In this document: positions 1,662 to 16,926 of the stretch, piece after piece
Layout: each line of letters begins with the position of its first letter
How positions within the stretch are numbered: the first letter of the stretch is position 1
Virus record (IMG/VR): IMGVR_UViG_2802429232_000009
Direction: 5' to 3' (one strand)
Length of the DNA stretch: 17,274 bases
Source of the DNA: a virus
Lineage: Duplodnaviria > Heunggongvirae > Uroviricota > Caudoviricetes
Translations under genes and position numbers: made by a program
Notes under the pieces: model-generated
Told to the model about the DNA's origin: nothing
What the model saw: only the letters and a program-made list of their open reading frames with translations
The model's database searches: none

Positions 1662-2117
1662 TTAAGGATGGGATTGCCAGCTACTTACTAAGGCATACAA
1701 GTGATTTGGTGAGTATCGCCAGCTATCTTTTAATTGCAGGAATTCAGCACAAAATTCACTGCAAAACAGGCGATCGCACTGTTCTTTATTGCCGGTGATA
1801 ATTCCTAAGGCTCCGCGCCAGTCGTATTTTTTGCCATCATGTTTATGGAAAAACGTTTCCACGTCCTGAAGGCAGGCCTGGAGCGGCAGCATATCCCACT
1901 TATCTGGCGGTAAAGGCATTATCTTTCCCCGAACGCCGCGATCGCGTAGTGATGCAGAGTAACAAAGGTAACTCTTTTCACCATGCTTAACGGCTAATTC
2001 ACAGTGGGAATAACTACCACGTGTCACTTTACGGGTAAACCAGTCAGCCAGTCGGGCAATACCACGGTGCTCTGTTCGGCCCTTATAACAAGCGAGCCAG
2101 ACAGTGGTTTTACTCAT
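1662..2117 (-). CDS. Hypothetical protein (151 aa), last gene of the tail operon; function unknown
   Basis: ATG at 2117..2115 overlaps the TGA of the upstream Tfa gene (ATGA overlap), implying translational coupling. Contains several Cys/His (WLACYKG, YSHCEL, CSEFCAEF) but no family I can name with confidence. Confidence 0.6.
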   Translation of the reverse strand: MSKTTVWLACYKGRTEHRGIARLADWFTRKVTRGSYSHCELAVKHGEKSYLCYSASLRDRGVRGKIMPLPPDKWDMLPLQACLQDVETFFHKHDGKKYDWRGALGIITGNKEQCDRLFCSEFCAEFLQLKDSWRYSPNHLYALVSSWQSHP

Positions 2118-2821
2118 GGTTGCCAGCCTGTGGAGTAATCGTAGTCGAGCACCGCCTGAATATCGTCCAGTGCTTCCACCGCCGCGATATGGTGCTGAGC
2201 GTTGGCGAATAAGCGCATATCGTGATCCATTGTTACCGATTCAAACTGGGCGGCGATTTCGTTGGTTAACTCGATCAGACCGTTATTTTTAGTTTTCCAC
2301 ATTAAACCTGGTGGAATTTTTTTCTCCGCTCCCATTTTTGTGAGTGAGATCTGTTGAATTCGGCTGTTTGTATCACTGTGGAAGTGATGGTCGTTGATGA
2401 TGATGTAGTTGGTTGTGATGGTATCGCGTTGATTTTTGATTGCAGAGTATTTCGCCTCTTTAGCATCGGTTATAGATGGTTGCCATTTTTCACCATCCCA
2501 ACGTTCAAAAGAACCTGATGGGGCAATGATGGTGACAGTTTCAGGTAATTGACCCAATTCTTGAATAATAAGCTGGCTACCATCAACTTTGTTATAAACA
2601 GTTTGCCCGCGATGATCTTCAATGTGCTCCCATTTTTCATTCACCCAAACAGGAGTAAAACCTGAAACCTTTTCGGGTGGTGAATTTAATGTGCAATGAT
2701 TTGGCAAACCTGTATTAGGTGCAATGTATGCATCAGACTCACCGATATATTCTTGGGTGTCTTGTGAAAAATTATAAACAGTCAGTATTTGAGCTTCATC
2801 GGAAAATGTAAAAGTATTCAT
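2114..2821 (-). CDS. Tail fiber assembly protein / chaperone (Tfa, Mu U / P2 G family), 235 aa
   Basis: Immediately downstream of the tail fiber gene with an ATGA start/stop overlap at 2818..2821. The N-terminal region has the Tfa-type pattern ([17 protein letters not shown] ... [10 protein letters not shown] ... WDGEKWQ); the C-terminal 100 aa are divergent. GAGG Shine-Dalgarno present. Confidence 0.8.
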
Positions 2822-4443
2822 GCTAGCCTCACAATATAATTGAATGCGATATTTTTAACGGTGTTTTCGGTATTGCCGGTATTATTAATGGTTATAGAGT
2901 GATTATGGGCCCCAAGTGGAATTGAATGTGAATGGGTACCAATTGAAAGTTCATGTGTATGGCTACCCAATGCGATAGTATGTGCATGGGTACCAATGGC
3001 TGTAGTATGAGAGTGATCACCTACTGCATCGGTATTAACAAAATCATAACGAGAGTCACCGATAGAATCAGCGGTTAGTGCATTGCCACCGTAATCAGCA
3101 TCACCTTTACATGTTATTTGATGTGAATGGCCACCTGTGCTGGTCGACGATTTACTTCCGTGATTGAACGACGATGTTGTCTTAGAGCCAAGATCAGAGG
3201 CAGATACCGTTTTGTTTCCAAAATCAAAAGATGATGTTGCTTTTGTCCCTAAATCCGTACTAGAAATACTGCCCGTATGGTTGTGCGATTTAACCCCATC
3301 CAGTTCAGTAGATAATATATTACGCCCACTGCTGGTTTTCCCTTTAATTATCCATCCACGCATATCAGGGATGACGCCAGACGGATATGCAATTGCCAGT
3401 TTGGGATATGAGGCTTTATTAAATGTCTGACCTGTCATCAGGGCGTAGCCAGAAGGTACAGAATCAGACGGCCAAGGAATAGGCATCCCTACAGGGCAGC
3501 TTTCCGCAGCACTAGCCTTATCATACGCCGCCTTCACCGCACTCGGCGTAGCCGCCTCCGTCGTACTGTTGCTATCCGTCGCATTACTAAGCTTCACAAT
3601 CCCTTTTTGTGTCAGGGTGCCGTCCGGAATACCCGTAATCTGCCCCCAGGGGTGTGTATGACTACCCGCAGCCTTACCGTTCGCCAGGTCATACGCCGCC
3701 TTCACCGCGCTCGGTGTCGCCGCCTCTGTCGTGCTGGTGCTATTGGTCGCATTATTAAGCTTCACAATCCCTTTTTGCGTCAGCGTACCATCCGGTATAT
3801 CAGTAATCTGACTCCAGGTATGACGATGATTTCGAGCCTCAATCATTGCCGCTTTCACCGCTTTTGGCGTAGCCGCTTTGGTTTCGTCATCACTGTCAGT
3901 GGCGTTACTTAACTGCGTAAAGCCTTTTTGCGATAACGTAGCATCAGGGTGATTAGTCGAACGTTCATGTTCATCCAGTTGCGAATCAACATAATCCCGT
4001 GTTGCCAGCACAATACTGGGATCAACGGTGAGCGTTACCGCTGCCGTATTGGAAACTTCCATAATGAGACGAATGCAAACTTGCTTACCGCTGCCGCCGG
4101 GTAATAGCGGTTTATACGACTCCGGGAATTTACCGATAGCAATGAGTTCACCATCGGTATCAAAAACACCGACTTCACGTACATACCAGCCGCCGATATT
4201 TTCTGGCAGTACAAGTTCCGCAATTAACCAGTTAGGATTATTAGGCGCAACTGTTAATGTATTTAAATCACCGCGCCATACTTCATGGCGTAATTTAGTT
4301 TGGCTGACGGTGGGTTCATAATATTGCCCTCCGCTGTCGCCAACAGCCATTTTTTGTAGATGAAGCTGTTTTTTATCCGCCAGGGCATTGGCAATTTTTG
4401 CCATCCCTCTGTCAGTGAGTAGAGTATAAAACTCATTATCCAT
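2818..4443 (-). CDS. Tail fiber protein (541 aa): P2 gpH / Mu S-like N-terminus, tandem repeats, His-x-His-rich C-terminal tip
   Basis: The N-terminal block ([21 protein letters not shown] ... [29 protein letters not shown] ... ATPKAVKAA) is the conserved tail-fiber N-terminal domain of P2/Mu/lambda-type fibers. Three copies of the TLTQKG-x-VKLSNAT...[13 protein letters not shown] repeat follow. The C-terminus has six HxH motifs (HSH, HSH, HAH, HTH, HSH, HNH). GGAG Shine-Dalgarno; ATG at 4443. Confidence 0.9.
3514..3945 (-). repeat. In-frame tandem direct repeats of about 168 bp (56 codons) inside the tail fiber gene; two well-conserved copies plus one degenerate copy
   Basis: The 20-mer tcatacgccgccttcaccgc occurs at 3521 and again at 3690 (period about 168 bp), with long near-identical tracts between them. 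The third, degenerate copy is around 3846..3945. Confidence 0.8.
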
Positions 4444-4445
4444 AA

Positions 4446-5078
4446 TTACTCCGGGTAAATATATGTAATTTCAAGGCTCCATTGCCCTGCTCCGTAATAG
4501 ATTGATGTGTTTTGCTGTACTTCCCGTATCTGGAAAGGTAAAACCGTCGTCAGTTCACCACCATAAAGCGCACAGCCAATAACAGGAATAGCACTTTGGT
4601 TAATGATCCAGACGATTAATGCTTCCAGTTTTGAACGTGTATTTTTATATTCATGAATGAGTTCTACCAGATTATTGAAAAGGTTTTCATCCATGCCTTT
4701 ATCCACCAGCTCTATATCAACCTTAAAAAAATAAGCCTTTCCCTCATATTCAAACCATTCTGAAATAGTTCCTGGTAGAGAAAGTATTTCCAGTACCCGC
4801 CGTACCGCCCAAATCGTTCCTTTATATTTATGCAGCTCAATGGCTTGCTTAATTAACTCTCGCTTCTCCCGTTCATCAGTGGTAAATAACCAACCTTCCA
4901 GCCCCTGAACGTGAAATTGTTCTGCAAGGGCAGGTAATGCCGAAGCATCAACTAGGTCTACCAGATAAACCATCAACGCCGTCAGATCGAGTTGGGCAAA
5001 ACGCTCGGCGGCGATATTTGCCAGAGTTGAAAAACGCTCATCGCTGGCAAGCGGCGGTGGCGGCAGCAATTTATCCAT
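4446..5078 (-). CDS. Baseplate/tail protein, P2 gpI / Mu gp48-like (about 210 aa)
   Basis: Position between the gpJ-like and tail fiber genes. I prefer the ATG at 5078..5076 (GGAG Shine-Dalgarno 9 nt upstream; overlaps the TAA of the upstream gene) over the TTG at 5093 used in the ORF track. Confidence 0.75.
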
Positions 5079-6186
5079 CGCTGACTCCGGCAATCGTGAC
5101 GTCTATCGCGGTGCATTCCGCCCACTCATGCGCCTGCAAAATACGTTTTGTGGGCATGTTCAGCACAACGTCATAGACGCCATCGACCTGCAATACTTTG
5201 ATTATCTGGTTTGGCACAATGTCCTGTCCCAGATGTGTCTGCCGCTGTTGCGTCCAGAGGCTAATCGCTTTACGCGCCGCAGCCAGCGTTGTCTCCTGAT
5301 CGGCAGTGGTAAACAGTGTGAGCTGCGCACGGATCTCATACGGCACCCTAACGGCGCATTTCGCACTTACTTTGTCGGTCAGCGGACGTTTTTTCTCCTT
5401 ACTAACCTCCAGTTCAATTTGCGCGAGCAGTTCCACGCCCGGCAGACCATTCAGCGTTAGCGGGTAGATCTCCACGCAGCCTTCTGGTAATCCTTCGTCC
5501 GGCCCCAGGACCGCAACGTCAATAATCGACTGGCTTACGGAAAGCGTATGAAAGCGGTAGGCACCATAGCTACCCGCATTACTGAAACTTTCCGGCGCCA
5601 GTTGGATCCGTTGGCGCAGTGCGTCATCACTCTCTTCACCGCAGCCGCCCGTTGAAGCAGTCAGGTTGGTTACGTTGATATCGTAATAACCAATCCTGTC
5701 AACAAGGGCGCTAATTTGTGCAGGCTGCCAGCCATTGCCCGCTTCGCCTGTTGTCAGACTGGTGGCGGGAACGGCGATATGCAAACTTCCCGCCGGAATC
5801 AGAACATCTTCATCGGTAGCAAACATCACGCTGTCAGAGGCGCTGGCTCGTGTTCCTTGGGGGATCAGGATGTTGCTTGTATACGCATTGACTACCGAAA
5901 ACTGCAACGTCGTTTTTGCTGGCTGCGCAGGTAAGCGGTGAACGCCCACCAGTTCCCCTAAATAATCCAGCATTGGCGCGCGGGAATACGCGACCAGGTT
6001 CTGTTTCGCCGCTTCCTGAATGGCGATGCGTACAAGGTTTTCACGATAGGCAAAAAGGTCAATCAGCAACCGCTCGGCCTGTGCCGGGTAGAGCTTTTTG
6101 CCGCTGGCATCTTCGTACTGCGCAATCATCTCGCTGGTAATTTGCGCAGGATCGCGGTCAATAAAATTGGGTTCGGCTATCGCCAT
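5071..6186 (-). CDS. Baseplate wedge protein, P2 gpJ / Mu gp47-like (371 aa)
   Basis: Size and synteny (gpW-like, gpJ-like, gpI-like, fiber). GGAGGTG Shine-Dalgarno; 10-nt overlap with the upstream gpW-like gene. Confidence 0.85.
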   Translation of the reverse strand: MAIAEPNFIDRDPAQITSEMIAQYEDASGKKLYPAQAERLLIDLFAYRENLVRIAIQEAAKQNLVAYSRAPMLDYLGELVGVHRLPAQPAKTTLQFSVVNAYTSNILIPQGTRASASDSVMFATDEDVLIPAGSLHIAVPATSLTTGEAGNGWQPAQISALVDRIGYYDINVTNLTASTGGCGEESDDALRQRIQLAPESFSNAGSYGAYRFHTLSVSQSIIDVAVLGPDEGLPEGCVEIYPLTLNGLPGVELLAQIELEVSKEKKRPLTDKVSAKCAVRVPYEIRAQLTLFTTADQETTLAAARKAISLWTQQRQTHLGQDIVPNQIIKVLQVDGVYDVVLNMPTKRILQAHEWAECTAIDVTIAGVSDG

Positions 6187-6536
6187 AACACCTCCGTTGA
6201 GTTGATTACGCCGTCAGCGGTGCGCCATTGCACACGTAACGTCAGATGTTCCCCGTCGATTACCGGTGTCACCTTCAGCAACCGGCAGCGCGCTTCCCAC
6301 TGGCGAATGGCCTCTACCGACTCCCGTACCACATGCGGGATCGCCCGCTCGATGGGATAATCGATGTAGTGCCACAAGTTGCTACCAAACAGCGGTCTGT
6401 GGGGATCACTGCCGCGCGGTGTGCGCAGAATGATGTGTATTGCCTGGTGAATATCATCCAGTCCGCAGACGTATTCTTCAGGCCGCTGCAAGGCGGGTTG
6501 CCAGTGCAGCGTAGAGGGGCGTGTTTTCGTGTTCAT
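6177..6536 (-). CDS. Baseplate protein, P2 gpW / T4 gp25 / Mu gp46-like (119 aa)
   Basis: Motif LDDIHQAIHIILRTPRGSDPHRPLFGSNLWHYIDYP matches the conserved gpW/gp25 core. Weak Shine-Dalgarno. Preceded by a 98-bp gap containing a terminator. Confidence 0.8.
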   Translation of the reverse strand: MNTKTRPSTLHWQPALQRPEEYVCGLDDIHQAIHIILRTPRGSDPHRPLFGSNLWHYIDYPIERAIPHVVRESVEAIRQWEARCRLLKVTPVIDGEHLTLRVQWRTADGVINSTEVLWR

Positions 6537-6597
6537 GAGGGCATTTTCGCCCTGAACAGGCGGAGGAGATATTAAAGCGGTTTAGAAAACTGGTTGA

Positions 6598-6629
6598 TTA
6601 AAAAGAGAAAACCCGCCATCAGGCGGGTT
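6598..6629 (-). terminator. Intrinsic (rho-independent) terminator for leftward transcription, inside the tail operon
   Basis: Perfect 8-bp GC-rich stem (6610..6617 pairs with 6622..6629) and 4-nt loop, followed on the minus-strand RNA by UUCUCUUUUU. Starts 6 nt after the spike gene stop (6635). Not a terminator on the plus strand. Confidence 0.65.
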
Positions 6630-6634
6630 AAAAG

Positions 6635-7336
6635 TCAGTGTGAATGGTGGTTGGAGTTGCCACCGCTGTCCTGCAATGTGCCGCTGGCCTGCACGTTACC
6701 AATCACGTTGACATTGCCGGTTATCGTGGCGGCATTACCGATGCCTCCACTTCCTGCCATGCCACCCAGCCAGGTCAGTTTTTTCATCACCGTTACGTTG
6801 CCGGTAAAGGTACTGAGCGGTGCGTCTACCGTTACAGTCATCGCTTTAACATCCACCTTACTGGCTTCAATGCTGACATCGGTGGCTTTCACATCAACAG
6901 TGTCGGAAGTCACGGTGACGTGTTGGGCTTTAACCTCAACGTTGGGCGATGTCAGGCGGGTACGGTCGATAACCTCAATCACGATTTTTTCAATGCCGCC
7001 ATTAATCGTAAGCTGGTGGGTGCTGCGGTCATATTCAAACGCTGCGCCATCGGAAAACTGGACATACCTTTTATCGCGCGATGCTACTGGCGCGGTATCT
7101 ACCGTTGAATATACTGCGCCCAGCACTACTCCATCTTCACCGTTATCATCCAGCAGAACTTCCACCTGCTCTCCCATATCCGGTAGCCAGTAGTCTTTAT
7201 TGTCCTGAGAATTGCGCTGCAGCACCGCAAGCCAGTTACTCTTCAGATTGTCACACTCTGGTAGCGTGACCCGCACCCGAACGCTGGTTTCGTCAATATC
7301 ACTGATAATCCCCGTTTGCCGGGTTACTCCTTTCAT
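6635..7336 (-). CDS. Baseplate central spike, P2 gpV / Mu gp45-like (233 aa)
   Basis: Strong AAGGAGG Shine-Dalgarno. N-terminal OB-fold-like region and repetitive beta-rich C-terminal half (VTV/VDV repeats) ending in a His cluster (NSNHHSH). Position after the gpD-like gene. Confidence 0.8.
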   Translation of the reverse strand: MKGVTRQTGIISDIDETSVRVRVTLPECDNLKSNWLAVLQRNSQDNKDYWLPDMGEQVEVLLDDNGEDGVVLGAVYSTVDTAPVASRDKRYVQFSDGAAFEYDRSTHQLTINGGIEKIVIEVIDRTRLTSPNVEVKAQHVTVTSDTVDVKATDVSIEASKVDVKAMTVTVDAPLSTFTGNVTVMKKLTWLGGMAGSGGIGNAATITGNVNVIGNVQASGTLQDSGGNSNHHSH

Positions 7337-7345
7337 ATTGCCTCC

Positions 7346-8386
7346 TTACTGGCTGGTCGCTGGCCCGCGTGAAACGTCGATCTCAGTGGTATAGCCGCTG
7401 CGCACAAAACTGTGAGTAGATTTATCAATCAGCCACTGACCGGAAAGCACACCAAAATCGGTTAGCTCGATTTTATTGCCTGCCGTCAGTTCCGGGCAGC
7501 CCATCATCCTGAGCGTTCCGGTTTGTTGGTATTCGTTGTGGCTGTCGAGCGCGGCGTTGGCCTTTGCTTGTGCCGCGCCAACGTCCGGCGCCCGACTGTT
7601 CAGTTTTAGCGTGTCGGCACTGGTGCCGACTCCACGGGCAGACGGCTTTTGCTGGCTGTCGTGAGTGTAGATAACCAGTTCTTTTTTCTTACTATTTTGA
7701 TGCTGTACGGTGGCGTTTTTGTAGATACGGTTAATGGTATCTTTGAAGGTGAAATGCGAAACGTCTTTGCGGTCGATCTTTTTCACCGGCGCCAGGCAGC
7801 GCAGCGTGGGTAAATGCGAAAAAATCAGCTCTTTGGTGGTCACCTTTAGCGCATAGCCATATTCGCTGGCCAGGCGCTTGATAAATCCAACATCGGTTTC
7901 GCCGTACTGTGTTACCCGGTCAATTGTCAGAGGCTCGATTTTGCCCACCAGCGTCAGGCCGTGAGTTTGCGCGATACGGCTGGCGATGGCTGAAAGCGTT
8001 GTCTCTTCAAAGCCCTGACTATTACGGGTGCGCAGCGCCTGATTGACGGAAGTGGCGATGCCATCAATATTTACCGTGGAAGGTGGTGCTGAAATATCAA
8101 TTTTATCAATGATATATTGACCACAATCGAGCAGTTTTTCCCCCTGATAACCCATGTGCAGCGCCAGCGTATCGCCTTTGCCGGGATACCACTCTTTTAT
8201 CCAGCGTCCATCGGTGTCATCCAGTGTAATCGCGATGGTATCCGACTCGTTTTTAATACTGTCGTGATAACTGATACTGGTGACATAGGGCGTGATGTCA
8301 TAAGTGATATCTTTATGCCCATACCAGAGGGTAAAAATGGGCGCGAGCGTGGCAAAGACGCCGCCAGTTACGCTTATCTCAGCCAT
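7346..8386 (-). CDS. Tail/baseplate hub protein, P2 gpD / Mu P (gp44)-like (346 aa)
   Basis: Size and synteny (gpU-like, gpX-like, gpD-like, gpV-like). GGAG Shine-Dalgarno; start overlaps the end of the gpX-like gene by 13 nt. Confidence 0.8.
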   Translation of the reverse strand: MAEISVTGGVFATLAPIFTLWYGHKDITYDITPYVTSISYHDSIKNESDTIAITLDDTDGRWIKEWYPGKGDTLALHMGYQGEKLLDCGQYIIDKIDISAPPSTVNIDGIATSVNQALRTRNSQGFEETTLSAIASRIAQTHGLTLVGKIEPLTIDRVTQYGETDVGFIKRLASEYGYALKVTTKELIFSHLPTLRCLAPVKKIDRKDVSHFTFKDTINRIYKNATVQHQNSKKKELVIYTHDSQQKPSARGVGTSADTLKLNSRAPDVGAAQAKANAALDSHNEYQQTGTLRMMGCPELTAGNKIELTDFGVLSGQWLIDKSTHSFVRSGYTTEIDVSRGPATSQ

Positions 8387-8583
8387 GGTGGGATCTCCGA
8401 TACGGTTTTGTTGACGGAAATGACTGGAATAATGAGCTGAATACCGGAAGGCAGTACCGGATAAATGGCGACATGTGGATTGGCGGCGATAATGCGTTCG
8501 TAAGCCAGTGCATCACCGTAGTAATGCCATGCCAGATTATCCCAGCGTTCGCCGTCGGTGGTGATATGTTCAAGGTATCGCAT
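8374..8583 (-). CDS. Small tail protein, P2 gpX-like (LysM-like fold), 69 aa
   Basis: GAGGAG Shine-Dalgarno. TAATG stop/start overlap with the upstream gene at 8583..8585. Motif YGD..AYERIIAANPHVAIYPVLPSGIQLIIP resembles tail protein X. Sits between the gpU-like and gpD-like genes as in R-type tailocin loci. Confidence 0.65.
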   Translation of the reverse strand: MRYLEHITTDGERWDNLAWHYYGDALAYERIIAANPHVAIYPVLPSGIQLIIPVISVNKTVSEIPPWLR

Positions 8584-9536
8584 TACCAGCTCCTCGTAAT
8601 GGTCGCGGCAGCAAGCCGAGTCACTGCGGGAATGGTTTGCTGTACCGTTGTACGTGCCTGCTCAACCAACGTTGTGGCTTTATCGAAAGTTGCTTCGGCG
8701 ATGTCGCTGGTAATGTCGTCAAAAAGCGCCTGTGCATGGTCAACCAGTGTCCCGGCGTCTTCGGCACAGTCGCGGATGCCCGGCATGTTACCTAGCAATG
8801 CTTTAATCTGCGCCGACAACGCTTTTGGTAATCCTGCCAGCGTTTGCAGATCCATCGGCTGTTTAAACAGGGTTTCGATGGCATCGATAGTCTTTTTCAA
8901 CGACGTAATTATCTTTTCACACTTTTCTTTTAACGCTTTGGCCTCTTTAATCAGTGCTTTGATCTTTGCCACTGTTTTTTTAATATCTTCAATGGATTGC
9001 GCCAGTTCATCGAGCATCTCTTTGGCTTTGCGCATACCTTCTTCAATGGTGTTCAATATCTGATCCAACCAAGACTCCACCTTGTCCGGAAAATCGCTCG
9101 CCTTTTCGTCAATATTAGGCTCCTGGGTGGTAATCGCCGGGGGCAGGAGTGGGTTTTTCGGATCGCCGGTATACTCCTGGAGCGACATTGTTCCGCTTTG
9201 GGCAATGATATTGCCCCAGGGATCGGTGTGCTGGTGAGTGGCGGTTAACTCTGTAATTACAAACCAGCCGCGATAATCACCGTTGCCAAACACCAGCGCC
9301 ATTGCTTTGTGGGCGAGCATGGCTTCACGCAGTCGATTCAGCTCTGTTGTGGGTTGGCAAAACTGGCTGTGCAGGGAAAATTCCAGCGCCAGCATGTCCA
9401 GCTTATCGCCAATAAACTGCACGCCAGGTTTGCCTTCAATACGGGCATGTGTGGCGTAATCCACGCCCATTGTGCTTTTAAAGCCATCCCAGAATGTGAC
9501 AACTTTAAATTCAATCTCACCTAAAACGGCATACAT
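8583..9536 (-). CDS. Tail protein at the Mu N position with a gpU-like N-terminal domain and a long K/E-rich coiled-coil C-terminal extension (317 aa)
   Basis: ATGA overlap with the tape measure stop at 9536..9538. The first 110 aa or so (EGKPGVQFIGDKLDMLALEFSL ... GNGDYRGWFVITEL) resemble the P2 gpU tail-terminator family; the remainder is predicted alpha-helical. Confidence 0.65.
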   Translation of the reverse strand: MYAVLGEIEFKVVTFWDGFKSTMGVDYATHARIEGKPGVQFIGDKLDMLALEFSLHSQFCQPTTELNRLREAMLAHKAMALVFGNGDYRGWFVITELTATHQHTDPWGNIIAQSGTMSLQEYTGDPKNPLLPPAITTQEPNIDEKASDFPDKVESWLDQILNTIEEGMRKAKEMLDELAQSIEDIKKTVAKIKALIKEAKALKEKCEKIITSLKKTIDAIETLFKQPMDLQTLAGLPKALSAQIKALLGNMPGIRDCAEDAGTLVDHAQALFDDITSDIAEATFDKATTLVEQARTTVQQTIPAVTRLAAATITRSW

Positions 9537-11905
9537 CAGGCATACCCCCGGCGCTGTTGCTGCGCCATTACGTCGTTAATCATTCTTTCCAGTTCGCGTT
9601 TACTCATCGTCAACACGTTCTGAATGTCTTTAGTGGTGTTTTGTCCGTTACTCTGCACGGTAATTTGTGGCGAAAAATTCACCTGGACTTTTCCCAGGGA
9701 ACGGGAGGGTAGCGTCGCCGGTTTGGTTACGGATTTACCAGGTAAAGAGGCCGACGCGGGTTTTGCCGCTGGCGCCGATGACGGCGTAGCCGTTTTGCTG
9801 GATGGCGCGAGTTGTTTGCCCACAGGCGGCGTTAAAAGCGCACCGGCAACGCCTGGAACAACGGTCGCGGGGGAGACTGATGCGGTATTAGTCGTGCCTG
9901 TAACAGCCGCAGCCGATGCTTCTGTGCTGATCCCCATTGTGGCTTTTAGCCAGTCTGGCATGGCGTTTTTGACCTGATCAATAATGCTTTTCAGAGCGGG
10001 GAAAGCATTCATTATGCCGTCGGCCAGACTACCCAGTATATTGCTGCCGAACTCGCTAAAACTCGCAGGCATCTCAACACCAAACCAATTCATCACATCG
10101 GAAAAGGCGCTGTAAAACAGCCCCAGTGGCGACCAGTCGAGAATCAACCGGCTAATACCAGCAATGCCGCCATCAAAGGCCGTGGTGATACGTTGCCAGA
10201 TGGCGGAAAATAACCTGGATATAGGTGCCCAGTTGCGATAAATCAGATAAGCCGCGCCCGCAATCGCAGTGATGACCAGACCAATGGGATTCATCAGTAG
10301 CACCCGACCTAGCGAGAGAACGGTTCGACCAACCAGTTTCAATGCTCCGATCAGGCCACGACCAAGCAGTTGCGTTAGCCATTTTGCGCCGCCACCCAAT
10401 GACTTAACCGCCGATAGCACCTTACTTGCCGTGCCTCCGAGCGCCAGACTTGCCCTCACTTTCAGGAAGATATCGACCAGACGAATAAACGGCGAGGCGA
10501 TGAAGTTCGCGCCCAGCTTTAAAACATTCAGCGCACCGTTAAACAGCCAAATCGCCCCGACGATTTTCGCAATGTTTTGCACCAGCGCCGGATGTTCGCG
10601 TAGCCAGGCGCTGAACTGGCGAATAACCGGCGCAAGGCTTTGCGCCAGCTCGCCAATCGCCGGCATAAGTTGTAAGCCAATGCTGAGCCATAAATCATTT
10701 AACGCCAGTTGTAACGCTTTAGTCTGTTCAATGGGCGAGGCCATTTGCGCAGAAAAGTCAGCGTTAATCAGATTCTTGCTGGTGGCTTGCATGGCAGAGG
10801 CTTTTAGCTGGCGATATTCCTCCATATTCGCCAACATAGGAGCCAGAAATTCCACCGTTTGCGCATCGCCGAACATTTCGCCCAGATTAAATTGCGTCAC
10901 CATCGATTGCAGCGCAGTGCTGCGGGCAGATAAATCTTCAATCTGCATGGTGCGTTTGAAGGTATCGAGGATCGCCGGATTCATCTTCTCAAGCTGCATT
11001 TGCACGATATGAGTCATAGCTTCGCTAACACCCATACCGTTTTGCTGATGCTCAAGCAGAGAACCTTGCAGATCGACCCCCTGGCTGGCGAACCAGCTAT
11101 CGGTTTTTTTCGAAAAGGTGGTTTGCAGAAAATGAGCGAAATTTTCCGTCGCCGCACTGGCGCTGGCACCGTTTTTCATGGCGATCTGCATGGTGGCGGC
11201 CAGTTCAGCCATACCTTCCAGACCCTGAGCGCCGGTTTTACCTGCAAATTTCTCTATCCACTGCGTTTGTTCGGTAATGGCAGGCCCACCGCTTTTGGTA
11301 ACGCTGTACATCATGTTTTGCGCAGCGTGGAAATTTTCTGGGGCAATATTCAGTCGATCATGAGTCGCGAGCGCGGCTTTCGCCCATGTTTCGGCGCTGT
11401 CGCGCGTGGCGGTGGCGGCTTTGGCGATCTCCGGCATATAGCGGTTGAGATCCTGCAAGGACGATATGTTGCCTTCAACTAAGGTCAGAGCGGCGGACTG
11501 TAACGTGGTCTGCTGCTGGTTAAAATCCATACTCCAGTCGCGCAGATTAAGGCTGAGCGTCTCGCGGGTGGCATCACTCATCCCGCCTTTGGTCGCCATA
11601 TTGACCATATTGACCATATTGTCCTGAAACTCATACGGCAACTTCCAGTCGGGGGCTTCAACATTAAATACTTTGCTAAATTGCCCGGCAAATGTTTGGG
11701 TTTTCTCCATCAGATTAGCGCGGCTGCGGCTATTTTCCTCCAGGCGGAGAGCGGAATTGGCAAGCCGCTGCGTTAGTTTGATAACTGTCGCTTGCTGAGT
11801 AGAGAGAGTTAACAATGTTCTGGCGTTGAGTGAGCCGTAACGGGCTATTGCCTGCGTCAACGTCTCATTACGCGCCTGAAGCTGGGTAATAATATCGTTG
11901 GCCAA
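9536..11905 (-). CDS. Tail tape measure protein (789 aa)
   Basis: Largest ORF, directly after the chaperone gene. Long helical N-terminal part, a central hydrophobic glycine-rich segment, and a Pro/Ala/Ser/Thr-rich tract near the C-terminus. The only available start is TTG at 11905 (in-frame TAA 15 nt upstream; AAAGAG Shine-Dalgarno-like motif). Confidence 0.85.
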   Translation of the reverse strand: MANDIITQLQARNETLTQAIARYGSLNARTLLTLSTQQATVIKLTQRLANSALRLEENSRSRANLMEKTQTFAGQFSKVFNVEAPDWKLPYEFQDNMVNMVNMATKGGMSDATRETLSLNLRDWSMDFNQQQTTLQSAALTLVEGNISSLQDLNRYMPEIAKAATATRDSAETWAKAALATHDRLNIAPENFHAAQNMMYSVTKSGGPAITEQTQWIEKFAGKTGAQGLEGMAELAATMQIAMKNGASASAATENFAHFLQTTFSKKTDSWFASQGVDLQGSLLEHQQNGMGVSEAMTHIVQMQLEKMNPAILDTFKRTMQIEDLSARSTALQSMVTQFNLGEMFGDAQTVEFLAPMLANMEEYRQLKASAMQATSKNLINADFSAQMASPIEQTKALQLALNDLWLSIGLQLMPAIGELAQSLAPVIRQFSAWLREHPALVQNIAKIVGAIWLFNGALNVLKLGANFIASPFIRLVDIFLKVRASLALGGTASKVLSAVKSLGGGAKWLTQLLGRGLIGALKLVGRTVLSLGRVLLMNPIGLVITAIAGAAYLIYRNWAPISRLFSAIWQRITTAFDGGIAGISRLILDWSPLGLFYSAFSDVMNWFGVEMPASFSEFGSNILGSLADGIMNAFPALKSIIDQVKNAMPDWLKATMGISTEASAAAVTGTTNTASVSPATVVPGVAGALLTPPVGKQLAPSSKTATPSSAPAAKPASASLPGKSVTKPATLPSRSLGKVQVNFSPQITVQSNGQNTTKDIQNVLTMSKRELERMINDVMAQQQRRGYA
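11596..11621 (-). repeat. Short in-frame tandem repeat (9-bp unit ccatattga, about 2.9 copies) inside the tape measure gene
   Basis: Read directly: gccatattgaccatattgaccatattgtcc. It encodes the duplicated tripeptide in DNMVNMVNMA. Confidence 0.7.
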
Positions 11906-12094
11906 AATTGTTTCTCTTTAAATATTGATAATGGCCCGCTGGTTATTTTTCTAAAAAAAGGGGCAGGGAAGAAATAAACCTGACGGGCTTGGGAAACTCG
12001 CAGACATCAGGTCTGCGAGCCATATTCGATTTTTATTTGGGCGTTGGCTTCATCCAGCCAGTTGCTAAAGTCATCGACGGTAAGGGCGTCTATC

Positions 12095-12412
12095 TCACTG
12101 GGCGGAAAGCGAAACCATCTCGCCAGTAGCGCCATTGCCTGCCATAGCAGGGGAGGATTCTGTAACCACGCTAAGCATAGATTGAAATCGTTTCTGCAAT
12201 GCCTGGTAATCCAGCAAATCCATTTCAGCTAAATCTTCTGGCACCAGTCCGGTCATTGCAGCCATTAGCGGTTCATCCCACTCTTCTGGTTTTTCGCTGA
12301 TCCGGCGGGCGTTGCGCATATCTTTTACTTTCAGGCGACGTAATTGCAGAGTGTTAATTACGTCTCCCGCCGCTGAAGTAAACGGGAACTGTAAGATATA
12401 ATGTTCTTTCAT
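12095..12412 (-). CDS. Tail assembly chaperone (P2 gpE / Mu gp41 / lambda gpG-equivalent position), 105 aa
   Basis: Small acidic ORF between the tube and tape measure genes. AAGGA Shine-Dalgarno. An overlapping alternative-frame ORF extends 3-prime of it (see findings). Confidence 0.7.
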   Translation of the reverse strand: MKEHYILQFPFTSAAGDVINTLQLRRLKVKDMRNARRISEKPEEWDEPLMAAMTGLVPEDLAEMDLLDYQALQKRFQSMLSVVTESSPAMAGNGATGEMVSLSAQ

Positions 12413-12439
12413 TTTGTATCCTTATTTATCATGCGGAAA

Positions 12440-12457
12440 TCGGGGCCGTAGCCCCGA
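12440..12457 (-). terminator. Hairpin between the tube and chaperone genes; possible attenuator or mRNA-stabilising stem-loop
   Basis: 7-bp perfect stem (TCGGGGC/GCCCCGA) with 4-nt loop in the 50-bp gap downstream of the tube stop. Followed on the minus-strand RNA by UUUCC only, so at most a weak terminator. Confidence 0.35.
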
Positions 12458-12462
12458 ATAAC

Positions 12463-12987
12463 TTAGCCACCGATGTTATTGCGATAGGTACTTAATTGAT
12501 CCACGCCGTTAACGCGGAAAATATTCGCCAGGTAATCCAGCTCCAGCAGTGTTTCACCATCGACCACCTGTTTAATATAGGTACAACCAAAGGCGCTGCT
12601 GAATTCCGGGTTTTCATTTTGTTTAAATGTTCCCAGTGGATTCTTTTTAAACATAACAGTCAAATGAGTGACTAACGCTAATTGATTCGCTTTCCCCTGG
12701 GAGTTATAGCAATCAATACTGGAGCGGCACTGTAATGCTACCGCCTGCCACGGGTTTGCCGTTTTACGCATGACGTCCTGATAAAAGGAGTTCCATTTAA
12801 TTTCCCCTTCCAGTTTATCGAAACCTGCCGGGAGCTCGATTTTACCGACCATGCCCAGTGCTTTATGCTCCTGCATAATTAAACTGACATCCGGTAATTT
12901 AATTTCGGTTGCACGACCTAACAGGTTATTACCATCGAGATAAATATTGGCATTGGTAATACGGTTAATTTGAATTTTTCCAGCCAT
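12463..12987 (-). CDS. Tail tube protein (P2 FII / Mu M-like), 174 aa
   Basis: Directly follows the sheath gene with a TAATG stop/start overlap at 12985..12989. GGAGAG Shine-Dalgarno. Size and position typical of contractile-tail tube proteins. Confidence 0.85.
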   Translation of the reverse strand: MAGKIQINRITNANIYLDGNNLLGRATEIKLPDVSLIMQEHKALGMVGKIELPAGFDKLEGEIKWNSFYQDVMRKTANPWQAVALQCRSSIDCYNSQGKANQLALVTHLTVMFKKNPLGTFKQNENPEFSSAFGCTYIKQVVDGETLLELDYLANIFRVNGVDQLSTYRNNIGG

Positions 12988-14411
12988 TAGCTATTGCTCT
13001 CCAGAGAGACTAAATATTCAGAAGTAATTTCAGTTTCAAACGTCAGACGTTCCAGCGGCGGTGGCGGGGTGAATTTATAGCTCAGCAATAAATGCCCGGC
13101 GCTGAGTTCGGTCGGTGAATTTCGCGCCGGATCGTACCAGCACTCAAAGCCAAGCAGTGCGCCGTCGGCAATCAGCTTACGGCCCCAGGTATTTACCGAC
13201 TCGGTCAGGGCATCAATTAGCGCCTGATTAATCGGCATATCGATATACTGCTGGCTGAAATAGCGGATCGACTCGTTAATCACATCGCCCGTGCGGCGAA
13301 CGTTTTCAAAGTTACGCATATGGGTCACGGTAGGCCATGCCGCAGTGCGGTTGCCCCATAAACGCAGACCAGAGCCGTAACTATTGAAAACTGTGGTAAT
13401 GCCGTTTTCGTTGAGCTGATTCACTTCACTTTGCGGGTCATCAACCATTGCGGAAAGTGAACGTTCGATACCGATAATGCCCTGAATTTCCTGGTTTGAG
13501 TTACTCCACCAGAAACCTTTCTCCAGGTCTACTTTGGCACGCAGTCCGGCAGCGCGTGAAGAGAGCGGTTCGAGAACTTCCTGGTTGGTTGAGCCGTCAT
13601 AAACTTTGACGTGCGGATAGCATAAACGCGCACGGTCAGAACTGGTGTTGAAGTTGATTGCGCCTTTCGAGCCGCGACCAGCCAGCACCTGCTGGAATGT
13701 AGTACCGATTGGGGCGTCAATGTAGGCGATAGCACCGAGTTTGTCCGCCTGAGCAATCAGCTCTGTGGTGACCGATTTTTGCGTACAGAAAACCGGAGCA
13801 AGCAGGATTTTGGCGTAGAAACCATACAGATTATAGGTGTCCTGTAGCAGTTTCATCCCCGTGCGATCGCCTGCGGTATTAACGGCGCCAATAATATCGG
13901 CTGCGGTAACTTTTGTTGGATCGGCCCATGAGTAATAGGCGCAAACTTTCGCTCCGGCAGGGATCTCAGTTTCTGCACGAGTGATTATTCCTGTTTGTTC
14001 ATCAACATGAAACGCTGTGCTGCTATACGTGGTGGCTGATGTTGAAGAGGGTTTCAGGACAACATTACGCACCGCACTATGAGCCAGTTTCGCCTGGTTG
14101 TTGGAATCAAAAGTGATACTCTCATTGCTGATGCTGGAGCCATGTTTTACCGGGTCCAGTACGTTAATCACCACCACCGTACCAGCGCCGTGGTCGTAAA
14201 TCGCCTTCAGCGCCTGCGGGATCGTAAAGTTAGCCTGAGTCGAGCCAAACTGCGCGGCATCGCTTTCAGAAAGGCACAATGTTGGTTTGTTTACCGGACC
14301 GCATGGTGCACTACCGATTAAAGCGATTACAGCGGATTTTACCGCTTTAACCGGGCGCGGACCGGTTTCAATTTCAATGGTTTCGACACCGTGCAGGTAA
14401 TTAGCTGCCAT
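12987..14411 (-). CDS. Tail sheath protein (Mu L / P2 FI-like), about 474 aa
   Basis: Large ORF immediately upstream of the tube gene. I prefer the ATG at 14411..14409 (GGAGAGG Shine-Dalgarno 8 nt upstream; overlaps the TAA of the preceding ORF) over the TTG at 14417 in the ORF track. Confidence 0.9.
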   Translation of the reverse strand: MAANYLHGVETIEIETGPRPVKAVKSAVIALIGSAPCGPVNKPTLCLSESDAAQFGSTQANFTIPQALKAIYDHGAGTVVVINVLDPVKHGSSISNESITFDSNNQAKLAHSAVRNVVLKPSSTSATTYSSTAFHVDEQTGIITRAETEIPAGAKVCAYYSWADPTKVTAADIIGAVNTAGDRTGMKLLQDTYNLYGFYAKILLAPVFCTQKSVTTELIAQADKLGAIAYIDAPIGTTFQQVLAGRGSKGAINFNTSSDRARLCYPHVKVYDGSTNQEVLEPLSSRAAGLRAKVDLEKGFWWSNSNQEIQGIIGIERSLSAMVDDPQSEVNQLNENGITTVFNSYGSGLRLWGNRTAAWPTVTHMRNFENVRRTGDVINESIRYFSQQYIDMPINQALIDALTESVNTWGRKLIADGALLGFECWYDPARNSPTELSAGHLLLSYKFTPPPPLERLTFETEITSEYLVSLESNS

Positions 14412-14598
14412 GTACAATTTCCTCTCCGGTATTTTGTTCTTCCTGAGTGATGACGGGAGTCAGATGATTGCGGGCAATCATGGTCATGACCCACTCGTTG
14501 TCTTCTGGCAGATCAATTTCACTGTTCGGCCACAATAAGATTTCTTGTCCGTCGGCAAGGGTGACGCCGCTTGCCGGGCCGTTGTAGATATATTTCAT
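14401..14598 (-). CDS. Small phage protein (65 aa), Mu gp38-like position; probable tail completion / neck-proximal protein
   Basis: ATGA overlap with the upstream ORF at 14595..14598. GAGGAA Shine-Dalgarno. Acidic. Position directly before the sheath gene. Confidence 0.55.
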   Translation of the reverse strand: MKYIYNGPASGVTLADGQEILLWPNSEIDLPEDNEWVMTMIARNHLTPVITQEEQNTGEEIVHGS

Positions 14599-15050
14599 TC
14601 AGTTTCCTCGTAATTAACTTCAGTAAGCAGGGTAAGGTCCGCGCTTTCCCGTTTCGCGATAAACAGCGAGCTGGTCGCCATTTCCAGGATGTAGCGGCAG
14701 AAACCACCGCTCTCGCCTGCATTGATTTCTTTTTCAAGCCAAAGAAGACGCTCGCAATCAGGAAGCTGGATCCCTCCCAGTGCGCTGCGTATGCGATCCA
14801 GTGCGTTTAACGCGTCACAATTTTTGCCAACAATAACGGTGGCAGTTAAGCGGAGCGTTTGCTGTTGCACGAGAGCATCACTGCTTTCAGGCATGGCAAA
14901 TAGAGAACCGCTATAATTAATAATTACTGTAACTTGCTGTGTCTGTGGAATATATTTCTGGGCATCGACCGATGAAATAAATACGTCCATTTCGGGATTC
15001 TGTTCACGTAATCTGGTCACAACAGAATTCATTACAGATAAAATTTCCAT
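14595..15050 (-). CDS. Phage protein (151 aa), Mu gp37-like; probable tail completion / sheath-initiator protein
   Basis: AAGGA Shine-Dalgarno. Position between the lysis cassette and the sheath gene, where Mu-like phages encode tail-completion proteins. Family assignment from memory only. Confidence 0.55.
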   Translation of the reverse strand: MEILSVMNSVVTRLREQNPEMDVFISSVDAQKYIPQTQQVTVIINYSGSLFAMPESSDALVQQQTLRLTATVIVGKNCDALNALDRIRSALGGIQLPDCERLLWLEKEINAGESGGFCRYILEMATSSLFIAKRESADLTLLTEVNYEETE

Positions 15051-15494: not shown

Positions 15495-16103
15495 TTAGTG
15501 AAGACAGCTTGCCTGTCCCCAGAGTAAGTAGCGGGCGGCATGTTGATAGAGGATCATCTTCGGGTAGTGACGATTTTCTCGCCAGTTCGCGGCGCTACGC
15601 CCGGCGTTGACGTGTTCAACATGACCAAACCAGATAGTGGCATCTAACCCTTTGGATGCGGCCAGTTTTTTATCCCGGTTAACCCATCCCTGACCGCCGT
15701 TATAGGCGCTTAGGGTAAATGCCATACGCTGACAGTCATTTTTCGCAGAGATGTTTTTCCACAAATGCTGGTCATATTGCACCAGCGCGCGAATCGCCCA
15801 GGTTGGGTTATAGGGCTTATTTTCACGTAGCTGTGGATACAACTGGCTTATCCATGTCGCTGTGGCAGGCATAAATTGCGCCATACCTTGTGCGCCGACG
15901 GGGGAACGCGCCATTGGCTGCCAGGCGGATTCCTGGTGTAACTGCCCGGCGAAGTCCGCCACCGGGGCGTTCAGCCCCCAGACTTCTCGTGCAGTTCGAA
16001 TCAGTTCGTTTCGCCATGCCAGAGATGCTCGCGGCGGTTCAGATGCGTTAAGCGGGAAGAACGCGAACAGAGTAATTAGCGCGAGAAATTTTACCTGCAT
16101 CAT
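15495..16103 (-). CDS. Lytic transglycosylase (SLT domain) endolysin with an N-terminal signal peptide or SAR-type sequence, about 202 aa
   Basis: Catalytic-site region LHQESAWQP ... AQGMAQFMPATA is the family-1 lytic transglycosylase signature. I place the start at the ATG at 16103..16101 (MMQVKFLALITLFAFFPLNA-SEPP), which overlaps the TAA of the upstream gene (TAATG). The longer 16199 start in the ORF track would overlap the upstream gene by 97 nt. Confidence 0.85.
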   Translation of the reverse strand: MMQVKFLALITLFAFFPLNASEPPRASLAWRNELIRTAREVWGLNAPVADFAGQLHQESAWQPMARSPVGAQGMAQFMPATATWISQLYPQLRENKPYNPTWAIRALVQYDQHLWKNISAKNDCQRMAFTLSAYNGGQGWVNRDKKLAASKGLDATIWFGHVEHVNAGRSAANWRENRHYPKMILYQHAARYLLWGQASCLH

Positions 16104-16390
16104 TAAAGTCCTAACGCGACGGAAAGGCAGACGGCTGCAACGATGATAGCCCGACGAATCATTGCCGCCGCGCAGCATCGCGCCTCTTCCCAAGGGCAAA
16201 ATGAGTCAGGCCGCGCCCAGGGAAACAGACTGCGATCGAGCCAGTATCCCAGCACAGCGGAGAGCGAAACCAGGCTTAGTTTATAAATGACTACCGGGAT
16301 CTGTGCGGAAGATGTCCAGCCGATCACGACAAACAGCGCGACGGAAGCGACCAGCCAGCCGGAAAGCCGGGGAAAAGTGACTTTTTTCAT
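16103..16390 (-). CDS. Small membrane protein with 3 predicted TM segments (95 aa); holin/antiholin candidate, first gene of the leftward operon
   Basis: Strong AGGAG Shine-Dalgarno 8 nt upstream of the ATG at 16390. Three hydrophobic stretches. Translationally coupled to the endolysin gene. Holin identity is positional inference only. Confidence 0.55.
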   Translation of the reverse strand: MKKVTFPRLSGWLVASVALFVVIGWTSSAQIPVVIYKLSLVSLSAVLGYWLDRSLFPWARPDSFCPWEEARCCAAAMIRRAIIVAAVCLSVALGL

Positions 16391-16926
16391 ACGATATCTC
16401 CTGATAAGTGAGCGTTTAGTGTCGCCAGATCCCTCCAGTGAAGAATGAAAAAAGCTTTAATAAATAACTTTAAAAAATAGATCCTCTATAAATGAACATG
16501 CTCGCTAATAAATCCACCCATTAATAAAAGAGCAAAAGGTGACCTGGCGAATAAGCGCGTCATTATGCAGGGAAAAGAGGATGGTGGATCGTAGGAGTAG
16601 TCAGTAGTTATTTGATTTTTAAAGTTTGTTTAAGAAAGTTAGCGACTGTGAGGGAAACGATCTTTTTATACTACAGGTAAAATAATACTGTATGTGTATA
16701 CAGTATCGTGTAAAATGATACTCCAGTTGACAAGAAACGTAACGCAAACAATATATTTATTTTGTGAATTTATGGTGTTCATTAATATTAAAAATTTATA
16801 TTTTTGGTGATTGTTTATTTGTTTGTTGAATGTATTGAGTAGCAGTAATGACAACTGCTTAGCGTATATCCGTGGTTTTACACGCATCGGGTCTTATACA
16901 GGATGCAAGATATATGGAGATGAAAA
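16391..16926. promoter_or_regulatory. Divergent AT-rich control region between the lysis/tail operon (leftward) and the Mor-family activator gene (rightward)
   Basis: 536 bp with no ORF of convincing coding character on either strand. Contains the LexA box below, a TAAAAT -10-like hexamer at 16711..16716, a TTGACA at 16727..16732, and three TAATAAA heptamers at about 16459..16528. Confidence 0.6.
16686..16705. promoter_or_regulatory. LexA (SOS) box: TACTGTATGTGTATACAGTA
   Basis: Perfect CTGT-N8-ACAG palindrome with the conserved flanking TA dinucleotides. Differs from the enterobacterial consensus TACTGTATATATATACAGTA only at two central spacer positions. A -10-like TAAAAT lies 5 bp to its right, so the box overlaps the -35/spacer of a candidate rightward promoter. 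Confidence 0.6.

Follow-up and report, generated by a model that had tools for sequence, protein, structure and literature searches.

The window analysed here is a 17,274-nucleotide stretch of viral DNA (IMG/VR virus record IMGVR_UViG_2802429232_000009; Duplodnaviria; Heunggongvirae; Uroviricota; Caudoviricetes) in which a leftward operon of lysis and contractile tail genes faces a rightward gene, mor, for an activator of the Mor/C family. The region between the holin gene, which opens the leftward operon, and mor contains a LexA operator (SOS box), TACTGTATGTGTATACAGTA. Most probably, this operator gates a Mor-driven programme of lysis and tailocin production in response to SOS, and the programme would be controlled through LexA and Mor alone. 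Judged by its sequence and its presence in several genera, the box is very probably a real and functional LexA operator; that it gates mor alone or predominantly is given a probability of roughly 0.6.

The evidence was obtained by computation and concerns the quality of the operator, its conservation, its overlap with promoter-like elements, the family to which Mor belongs, the genes that make the window a tailocin, and the lack of LexA sites in phage relatives. Coordinates of all features are collected in Table 1.

Identification and scoring of the LexA operator

A sequence-only reading of the window had described the box as a perfect CTGT-N8-ACAG palindrome with a TAAAAT hexamer 5 bp downstream, and this was borne out. 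The distances it had estimated at approximately 220 bp to the mor ATG and 295 bp to the first lysis gene were measured as 221 bp from the end of the box to the mor ATG (16927) and 295 bp from the start of the box to the holin ATG (16390). CTGT-N8-ACAG occurs only once in the whole window. By itself this loose pattern is weak evidence, with at least one match in 22 of 200 shuffles.

The site was scored with a LexA matrix made from 28 E. coli LexA sites, and exact scores are approximate. On this matrix TACTGTATGTGTATACAGTA reaches 25.5 bits and ranks fourth among the 28 real E. coli sites (recA 22.0, sulA 22.9), far above chance. Its heterology-index-like value is 3.4, compared with 5.8 for recA and 5.2 for sulA on the same matrix. 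The exact tail probability for the score is 9.5e-10 per position, and chance alone would yield 3.3e-5 sites in a window and 5.8e-6 in the intergenic region, which is AT-rich. The next site in the window reaches only 10.7 bits, and the matrix scan found no second site of at least 8 bits in the holin-mor intergenic region. Compared with the consensus TACTGTATATATATACAGTA, 18 of 20 bases are identical and both half-sites are perfect. We infer from this match that LexA binds the box. A site so near to consensus predicts tight repression and late induction at a high damage threshold, which would fit a lethal function.

Other features of the surrounding DNA were also recorded. A direct repeat, GTAAAATAATACT and GTAAAATGATACT (16677-16689 and 16710-16722), brackets the box in the E. 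coli lineage only, and its left copy, GTAAAATAATACT, provides a second TAAAAT immediately upstream of the box. Four GATC sites lie in the intergenic interval 16426-16660, one of them within a conserved ACGATCTTTTT directly to the left of the box.

Conservation of the operator across genera

Loci for footprinting were retrieved by means of the Mor protein and are therefore unbiased as to the box. E. coli A10, S. Infantis, Phytobacter, and two Superficieibacter each carry one CTGT-N8-ACAG, at a distance of approximately 230-310 bp upstream of mor. Six holin-mor intergenic sequences were then aligned (alignment A1, mean identity 60%). Across the stretch ACTGTAT.T..ATACAGTA..GTGTAAAATG, 26 of 31 columns are invariant, versus 101 of 505 elsewhere in the alignment, and an alignment of 12 sequences gave the same picture. 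Conservation across genera against a background of 60% identity thus upholds the earlier claim of a LexA-type operator in the divergent control region and marks it as kept by selection.

The box is present in four of the five genera that have an intact cluster, with Enterobacter as the exception. Variation within it is limited to position 1 and the central positions 9-12, while CTGTAT and ATACAG are constant in all variants seen; the variable positions are those that matter least for LexA, and substitutions there are tolerated. Twelve further loci were obtained from pattern scans of viral and metagenome collections. The pattern demanded an intact box, so these loci were used only to describe variation at the box centre.

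Damaged forms of the locus were seen as well. One Salmonella locus (L016) appears decayed, perhaps partly through assembly errors, and its box has degenerated as well, reading AACTGTGGTTAGCGCATACAGTA. In E. coli CREC-544 an ISL3-family insertion sequence (IS) with an ISKox3 transposase lies inside the box (L034, 3798-3815 and 5125-5145), giving the structure TACTGTATGTGTAT, then the IS, then ATGTGTATACAGTA, with an 8-bp target duplication, ATGTGTAT; the sheath gene of this strain is frameshifted. A split match consistent with an IS in the box was found in approximately 11 of 197 E. coli genomes, of which CREC-544 was the one inspected. Some Salmonella carry an orphan mor (L019 908-1297, L020, and L037, e.g., serovar Stanley), in which mor and approximately 150 bp upstream of it remain next to lysC, and a hexapeptide-repeat acetyltransferase gene has taken the place of the box and of all the tail and lysis genes.

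Candidate promoters overlapped by the operator

A comparison of the scores of sigma-70-like hexamer pairs across seven orthologous regions left only two promoter candidates with a conserved position, and each of them is overlapped by the box. The rightward pair, CTGTAT-17-TAAAAT, scores 6.1-7.4 in every box-carrying ortholog and places the box at about -37 to -18. It is preceded by an A-rich tract (A-tracts in all orthologs; AAAAAA at about -45 to -40 in Salmonella and Phytobacter) that appears to resemble a proximal UP subsite. The leftward pair, TTTACA-16-TACAGT, scores 8.0-8.8 in every box-carrying ortholog, places the box at about -25 to -6, and is the sole match of a consensus promoter scan; where an UP subsite would lie for this pair, the sequence lacks both AT-richness and conservation. 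Enterobacter has lost the box and yet retains TAAAATG, which again favours the rightward promoter. Promoter occlusion by LexA, as the sequence-only reading had it, would fit in that the box overlaps the only promoter-like elements that are conserved in position, one on each strand.

Several indirect arguments favour mor as the gated gene. It is the only regulator gene of the island and needs a promoter. No gene for another regulator or DNA-binding protein was found in the island among the open reading frames (ORFs), the Pfam matches, or the E. coli annotation. The 221 bp between box and ATG are no obstacle, since the LexA box of tisB lies 236 bp upstream of its ATG and gives strong control (610-fold induction; PMC8072944). 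Both leaders appear unstructured: no credible Rfam match to a known structured RNA was found in them (best E=0.75, 23 bits versus a gathering score of 99), and they fold no better than shuffles (z=-0.22 rightward, z=-0.18 leftward). The idea that the box is followed by a small ORF or a toxin-like peptide, as in tisB and dinQ, was considered and rejected; several ORFs of 21-42 amino acids exist, but the region is poorly conserved and indel-rich.

A published SOS transcriptome of Salmonella bears on the choice of promoter. In S. Typhimurium 14028, STM14_5073 rises 4.08-fold with nalidixic acid, from 49 to 204.5 transcripts per million (TPM) (PMC8072944, Dataset S1). This gene was taken as the mor ortholog because of its size (348 bp), its strand (plus), and its distance from malE (11.3 kb before it). 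No STM14_505x, STM14_506x, or STM14_5070-5072 gene is in the differential list examined (same dataset). A rise of mor with the lysis and tail genes unlisted favours the rightward mor promoter and is not proof of it. The proposal of a rightward, SOS-repressed mor promoter accordingly gains indirect support from the UP-like A-tract and from mor induction in Salmonella, neither of which proves it, and loses from a leftward promoter that is equally conserved and scores higher.

Mor and its candidate operators

In Mu, the site of the Mor dimer is a 16-bp element with two 5-bp inverted repeats and its centre at -43.5, and the target promoter of Mor has a -10 element without a -35 element (PMC4390567). 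Because of this analogy, Mor of the window is expected to act upstream of the holin gene, where two nearly invariant, AT-rich blocks were found. Block 1, GCTTTAATAAATAACTTTAAAAAAT, lies 64-88 bp upstream of the holin ATG, with a minus-strand TAAAGT as a possible -10; a 21-mer of this block is unique in the window. Block 2 is a palindrome with an architecture similar to that of the Mu Mor site (PMC4390567), and the same hexamer-N5-hexamer geometry is seen in the complete phage KP12, in which TTATAA-CGCGC-TTTAAA stands approximately 55-75 bp upstream of holin. The 11-mer AACTTTAAAAA has just two copies in the window, one per block and in inverted orientation. By analogy with Mu, both blocks are reasonable candidate Mor operators, and Mor would activate the lysis and tail operon.

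Long-range RNA pairing of the two inverted AACTTTAAAAA copies was rejected as an explanation. A C-to-G change in block 1 of two loci (L003 and L032) is uncompensated in block 2, and DNA-level elements are therefore preferred. At the spacing of -43.5 from block 2, a promoter with TACGAT fits E. coli and is not conserved in Salmonella or Phytobacter; no -10 for a Mor-dependent promoter was found on the rightward side of block 2.

Taken together, the proposed circuit would work as follows. In an undamaged cell, a LexA dimer would sit over about -37 to -18 of the weak rightward promoter and keep mor off or low. DNA damage would activate RecA, LexA would cleave itself, and a mor transcript with a leader of approximately 200 nt would be made. 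Mor would then recruit sigma-70 RNA polymerase to a late promoter that lacks a -35 element, upstream of holin at block 1 and/or block 2. The single leftward operon (holin, SLT lysin, and tail genes) would thereby be switched on, and tail particles would assemble and exit by lysis.

A more extended version of this circuit is put forward tentatively, and we regard it as rather doubtful. In it, the tailocin has long been domesticated, being vertically inherited or repeatedly retained beside lysC in at least five enterobacterial genera, and its control consists of host LexA and one phage activator. A trigger amount of Mor from the LexA-gated promoter would act on block 1 ahead of holin and on block 2 upstream of mor and switch on both the late operon and mor itself, with bistable and irreversible lysis in a subpopulation as the outcome. 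Enterobacter without a box, the boxes split by an IS, and the orphan mor would then be rewired or disarmed versions of the circuit.

Evidence against gating of mor and alternative explanations

A number of results weigh against the reading that the box gates mor and that Mor in turn drives the late genes. The leftward promoter candidate is as well conserved as the rightward one and scores above it, and the rightward candidate has a poor -35 and no extended -10. A convincing Mor operator, accompanied by a conserved -10 at the spacing required, was looked for and not found. In the Salmonella data the late genes are not induced, which gives no support to the step from Mor to the late operon, and the 4-fold rise of mor from a basal TPM of 49 is itself weak evidence because different growth states were compared and 1091 genes were up. 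STM14_5073 is also absent from the table of induced genes that have a LexA box no more than 400 bp away (PMC8072944, Table 1); either strain 14028 lacks the box or the authors' cross-referencing missed the gene. Finally, in Enterobacter hormaechei (L012) the cluster from holin to sheath and mor are intact beside lysC, the place of the box reads ...CATAAGCAGTGTTTATTATAAAATGG..., and no LexA-like site of at least 8 bits was found in positions 2496-3000. This variant must be under different regulation.

In one alternative, LexA directly represses the leftward promoter, which would amount to genuine colicin-style control of the lethal operon. Transcription would start near 16680, with a leader of approximately 290 nt into the holin and tail genes; Mor would serve only to amplify, or a different promoter closer to the mor ATG would drive it. 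The leftward pair is the one found by the consensus scan and, of the promoters that hold their position in all orthologs, has the highest score. The box would cover it from -25 to -6 including the -10, a classical repression geometry, and AT-rich -10-like hexamers do lie nearer mor in several lineages (e.g., TATAAT in Salmonella and Superficieibacter). This arrangement is nevertheless judged unlikely. The Salmonella RNA-seq data show mor induced and the lysis and tail genes missing from the differential list examined (PMC8072944), the leftward pair is accompanied by neither an UP-like nor a conserved sequence on the side where one would be expected and is not kept in Enterobacter, and its leader has no special structure (z=-0.18) and no Rfam match. 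The only regulator gene of the island would also be left without a clear role.

It is similarly improbable that one operator gates two superimposed, opposite promoters within 30 bp, each -10 overlying the -35 of the other, such that mor and a basal leftward transcript are silenced together. The invariant 10-mer GTGTAAAATG speaks for this arrangement: it is longer than one hexamer needs, and the plus-strand TAAAAT and the minus-strand TTTACA together cover 8 of its 10 invariant bases, whereas one hexamer explains fewer, so that both promoters may be real. LexA boxes shared by divergent genes are also known, e.g., uvrA/ssb (cited in PMC8072944). Against it, the late genes are not in the Salmonella list, and overlapping promoters would compete with each other.

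A reading without LexA, in which some different protein recognises the palindrome or its conservation reflects a structural role or use as an IS target and not SOS, is very unlikely. The ISL3-family insertion exactly in the box, indicated in approximately 11 E. coli genomes, suggests that the AT-rich palindrome attracts transposition, and the invariant GTGTAAAATG beside the box lies outside the LexA site. The match, however, is specifically to the LexA consensus, with the 12 critical positions of CTGTAT/ATACAG invariant and the variation central; moreover, mor is the only gene for a DNA-binding protein in the island, and known Mor sites look different (PMC4390567). A chance match or a decaying relic without present function can practically be set aside: pseudogene-bearing remnants do occur (CREC-544 with its frameshifted sheath gene, Salmonella L016) and Enterobacter manages without the box, but only 3e-5 sites per window are expected by chance, the box is kept across genera with flanks that have diverged to approximately 60% identity, and in the decayed-looking L016 (with the same reservation about assembly) the box is degraded too.

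Gating of mor by the box, alone or predominantly, remains the preferred reading.

Gene content and origin of the locus

By its gene content, the window is assigned to the R-type tailocins, and it is derived from a BcepMu-like phage. Both a complete contractile tail module and a lysis cassette were identified with Pfam, the tail module comprising Gp37, sheath, tube, chaperone, tape measure, gpU, gpX, gpD, gpV, gpW, gpJ, gpI, tail fibre, and fibre assembly proteins. No head or capsid, terminase or packaging, transposase, replication, integrase, or repressor genes were found in the window (ORF list, Pfam), and neither an ORF nor a Pfam match for a self-cleaving S24/cI-like repressor was found in either the window or the E. 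coli island. The Mor profile match (PF08765) is full-length, at 129 bits versus a cut-off of 24.9, and Mor also matches Mu Mor (1RR7, E=5e-8) and Mu C (9L0X, E=7e-5).

Sheath identity with BcepMu-like transposable phages is 71-74%, and Mor is 44-49% identical to BcepMu gp01 and to phiE255 gp32, recorded as 'RdgB'. In the complete phages KP12 and PhiKM, the tail, head, and lysis genes (leftward) are followed by the control region and then by the early operon with transposase, gemA, and mor (rightward), such that mor is the last gene of the early operon. The window is a headless derivative of such a phage, since the early operon and the head module are gone and mor is left facing holin. No LexA site was found near mor or holin in KP12 or PhiKM: the top-scoring KP12 site, at 12.3 bits, is within a tail-fibre gene, and in PhiKM no site of at least 8 bits was found in the 8.3 kb examined. 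The operator was therefore acquired upon domestication. The earlier idea of LexA control added to a Mu-type activator module is in this way supported and can be stated more precisely, the module belonging to the BcepMu family. The KP12 control region also carries a dam methylase gene.

Homologous DNA (approximately 94% identity) is present in 197 of 5426 complete E. coli genomes (approximately 4%), and the exact Mor sequence of the window is on record from E. coli. In E. coli A10 the island is bordered by yjbD and lysC. The same arrangement adjacent to lysC was found in five genera, namely E. coli, Salmonella, Phytobacter, Superficieibacter, and Enterobacter (E. hormaechei), and the Salmonella counterpart is STM4213-STM4219 of LT2, as annotated in the Infantis record. 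The locus differs from the published 'ST131 tailocin', which is a P2-like prophage with capsid genes. No description of the locus or its regulation was found in the literature searched (STM4200-4219; tailocin with Mor, LexA, lysC, or BcepMu).

At the far end of the tail cluster, past the fibre-assembly genes, the window has a GT4-family glycosyltransferase ORF (1-1152, minus strand) in low-GC DNA (approximately 36% guanine plus cytosine), which also matches PF20706, 'GT4 in conflict systems'. At that end of the island, E. coli A10 has slipin-family and nucleotidyltransferase genes instead.

Table 1. Positions of the operator, candidate control elements, and genes in the window
Feature	Position	Strand	Basis
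LexA operator (SOS box) TACTGTATGTGTATACAGTA	16686..16705	.	Sequence read, matrix score, cross-genus presence
-10-like hexamer TAAAAT, candidate rightward (mor) promoter	16711..16716	+	Within invariant 10-mer GTGTAAAATG (16707-16717)
Weak -35-like CTGTAT, 17-bp spacer, inside LexA box	16688..16693	+	Promoter scoring
A-rich tract, about -46 to -38 of rightward promoter	16677..16685	+	A-tracts in all orthologs
Alternative leftward promoter: -35 TTTACA (16714-16709), 16-bp spacer, -10 TACAGT (16692-16687)	16687..16714	-	Consensus scan, promoter scoring
Conserved block 1 GCTTTAATAAATAACTTTAAAAAAT, candidate Mor-dependent late promoter/operator	16454..16478	.	22/23 columns invariant
Conserved block 2, palindrome TTTAAA-GTTTG-TTTAAG, candidate Mor operator	16618..16634	.	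Alignments
Mor/C-family activator mor, 115 amino acids	16927..17274	+	Pfam PF08765, E=7e-38
Holin, first gene of leftward lysis/tail operon	16103..16390	-	Pfam Holin_2-3, E=3e-27; E. coli annotation 'putative holin'
SLT-domain lytic transglycosylase (endolysin)	15495..16199	-	Pfam SLT, E=4e-15; E. coli annotation starts further inside the ORF
Lysis-cassette membrane protein, 104 amino acids	15168..15482	-	ORF list; E. coli annotation 'membrane protein'; no Pfam match
Complete contractile tail module	1662..15050	-	Pfam matches

Significance and comparison with known systems

Tailocins are usually induced by DNA damage, and a 2025 paper on Dickeya P2D1 states that the regulation of enterobacterial tailocins is still to be elucidated. 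The locus described here offers a minimal, concrete circuit, from LexA to Mor to the lysis and tail genes, in genetically tractable organisms. If the circuit is as proposed, exposure of carrier strains to quinolones or other SOS inducers would set off lysis and the release of tailocins, with a bearing on gut competition, antibiotic-induced lysis, and tailocin engineering. The locus would also show how the late module of a transposable phage was rewired to a host regulator during domestication.

The Rdg system (RecA, RdgA, RdgB) of Pectobacterium carotovorum, which Liu, Chatterjee and Chatterjee reportedly described in 1994 (cited in PMC3349551), controls pectin lyase and carotovoricin. There, as is proposed here, a Mor-family activator (RdgB) is the final switch of a DNA-damage-inducible phage-tail bacteriocin and lysis in an enterobacterium, and the name 'RdgB' is attached to homologs of the window Mor in phage records. 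The systems differ in that the SOS signal of Rdg is carried by RdgA, a cI-like protein processed by RecA, whereas the window has no such gene and has a host LexA box upstream of the activator. The R- and F-pyocins of Pseudomonas aeruginosa (PrtR, PrtN, P-boxes) share the logic of an SOS-sensitive repressor that holds a small activator gene off, with the activator then starting the tail and lysis genes. PrtR, however, is a LexA/cI-like protein encoded by the cluster and not host LexA, and PrtN is not of the Mor family.

Trigger genes under LexA control are known in phages, namely tum of coliphage 186 and the antirepressors of Gifsy. Host LexA directly represses, in these cases as would be so here, one small regulatory gene whose product launches the lytic programme. 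The phage products are antirepressors that inactivate a phage repressor, whereas the window encodes an activator and has no repressor to inactivate. LexA-regulated dinI homologues of Gifsy prophages are also listed in PMC8072944.

The sequence-only reading had called the control colicin-like, and this fits loosely. As in the colicins, a host LexA box is placed directly in the control region of a lethal locus released by lysis, and a strong operator implies late induction. Colicin boxes are tandem and overlapping, stand just downstream of the -10 of the toxin promoter, and act with no intermediate activator; here there is one box, 295 bp from the first lysis gene and beside an activator gene. 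With Mu and the BcepMu-like phages the locus shares a Mor homologous to Mu Mor and C, and the expectation of a promoter without a -35 and with a dyad at about -43.5 (PMC4390567). In those phages mor is the last gene of an early operon controlled by a phage repressor, and there is no LexA site; in the window the early operon and the head genes have been lost, and 535 bp of upstream sequence, with the LexA box in it, belong to mor itself. The circuit is thus a variant of known SOS-tailocin wiring in which host LexA would take the place of a cluster-encoded, self-cleaving repressor, and it involves no new principle.

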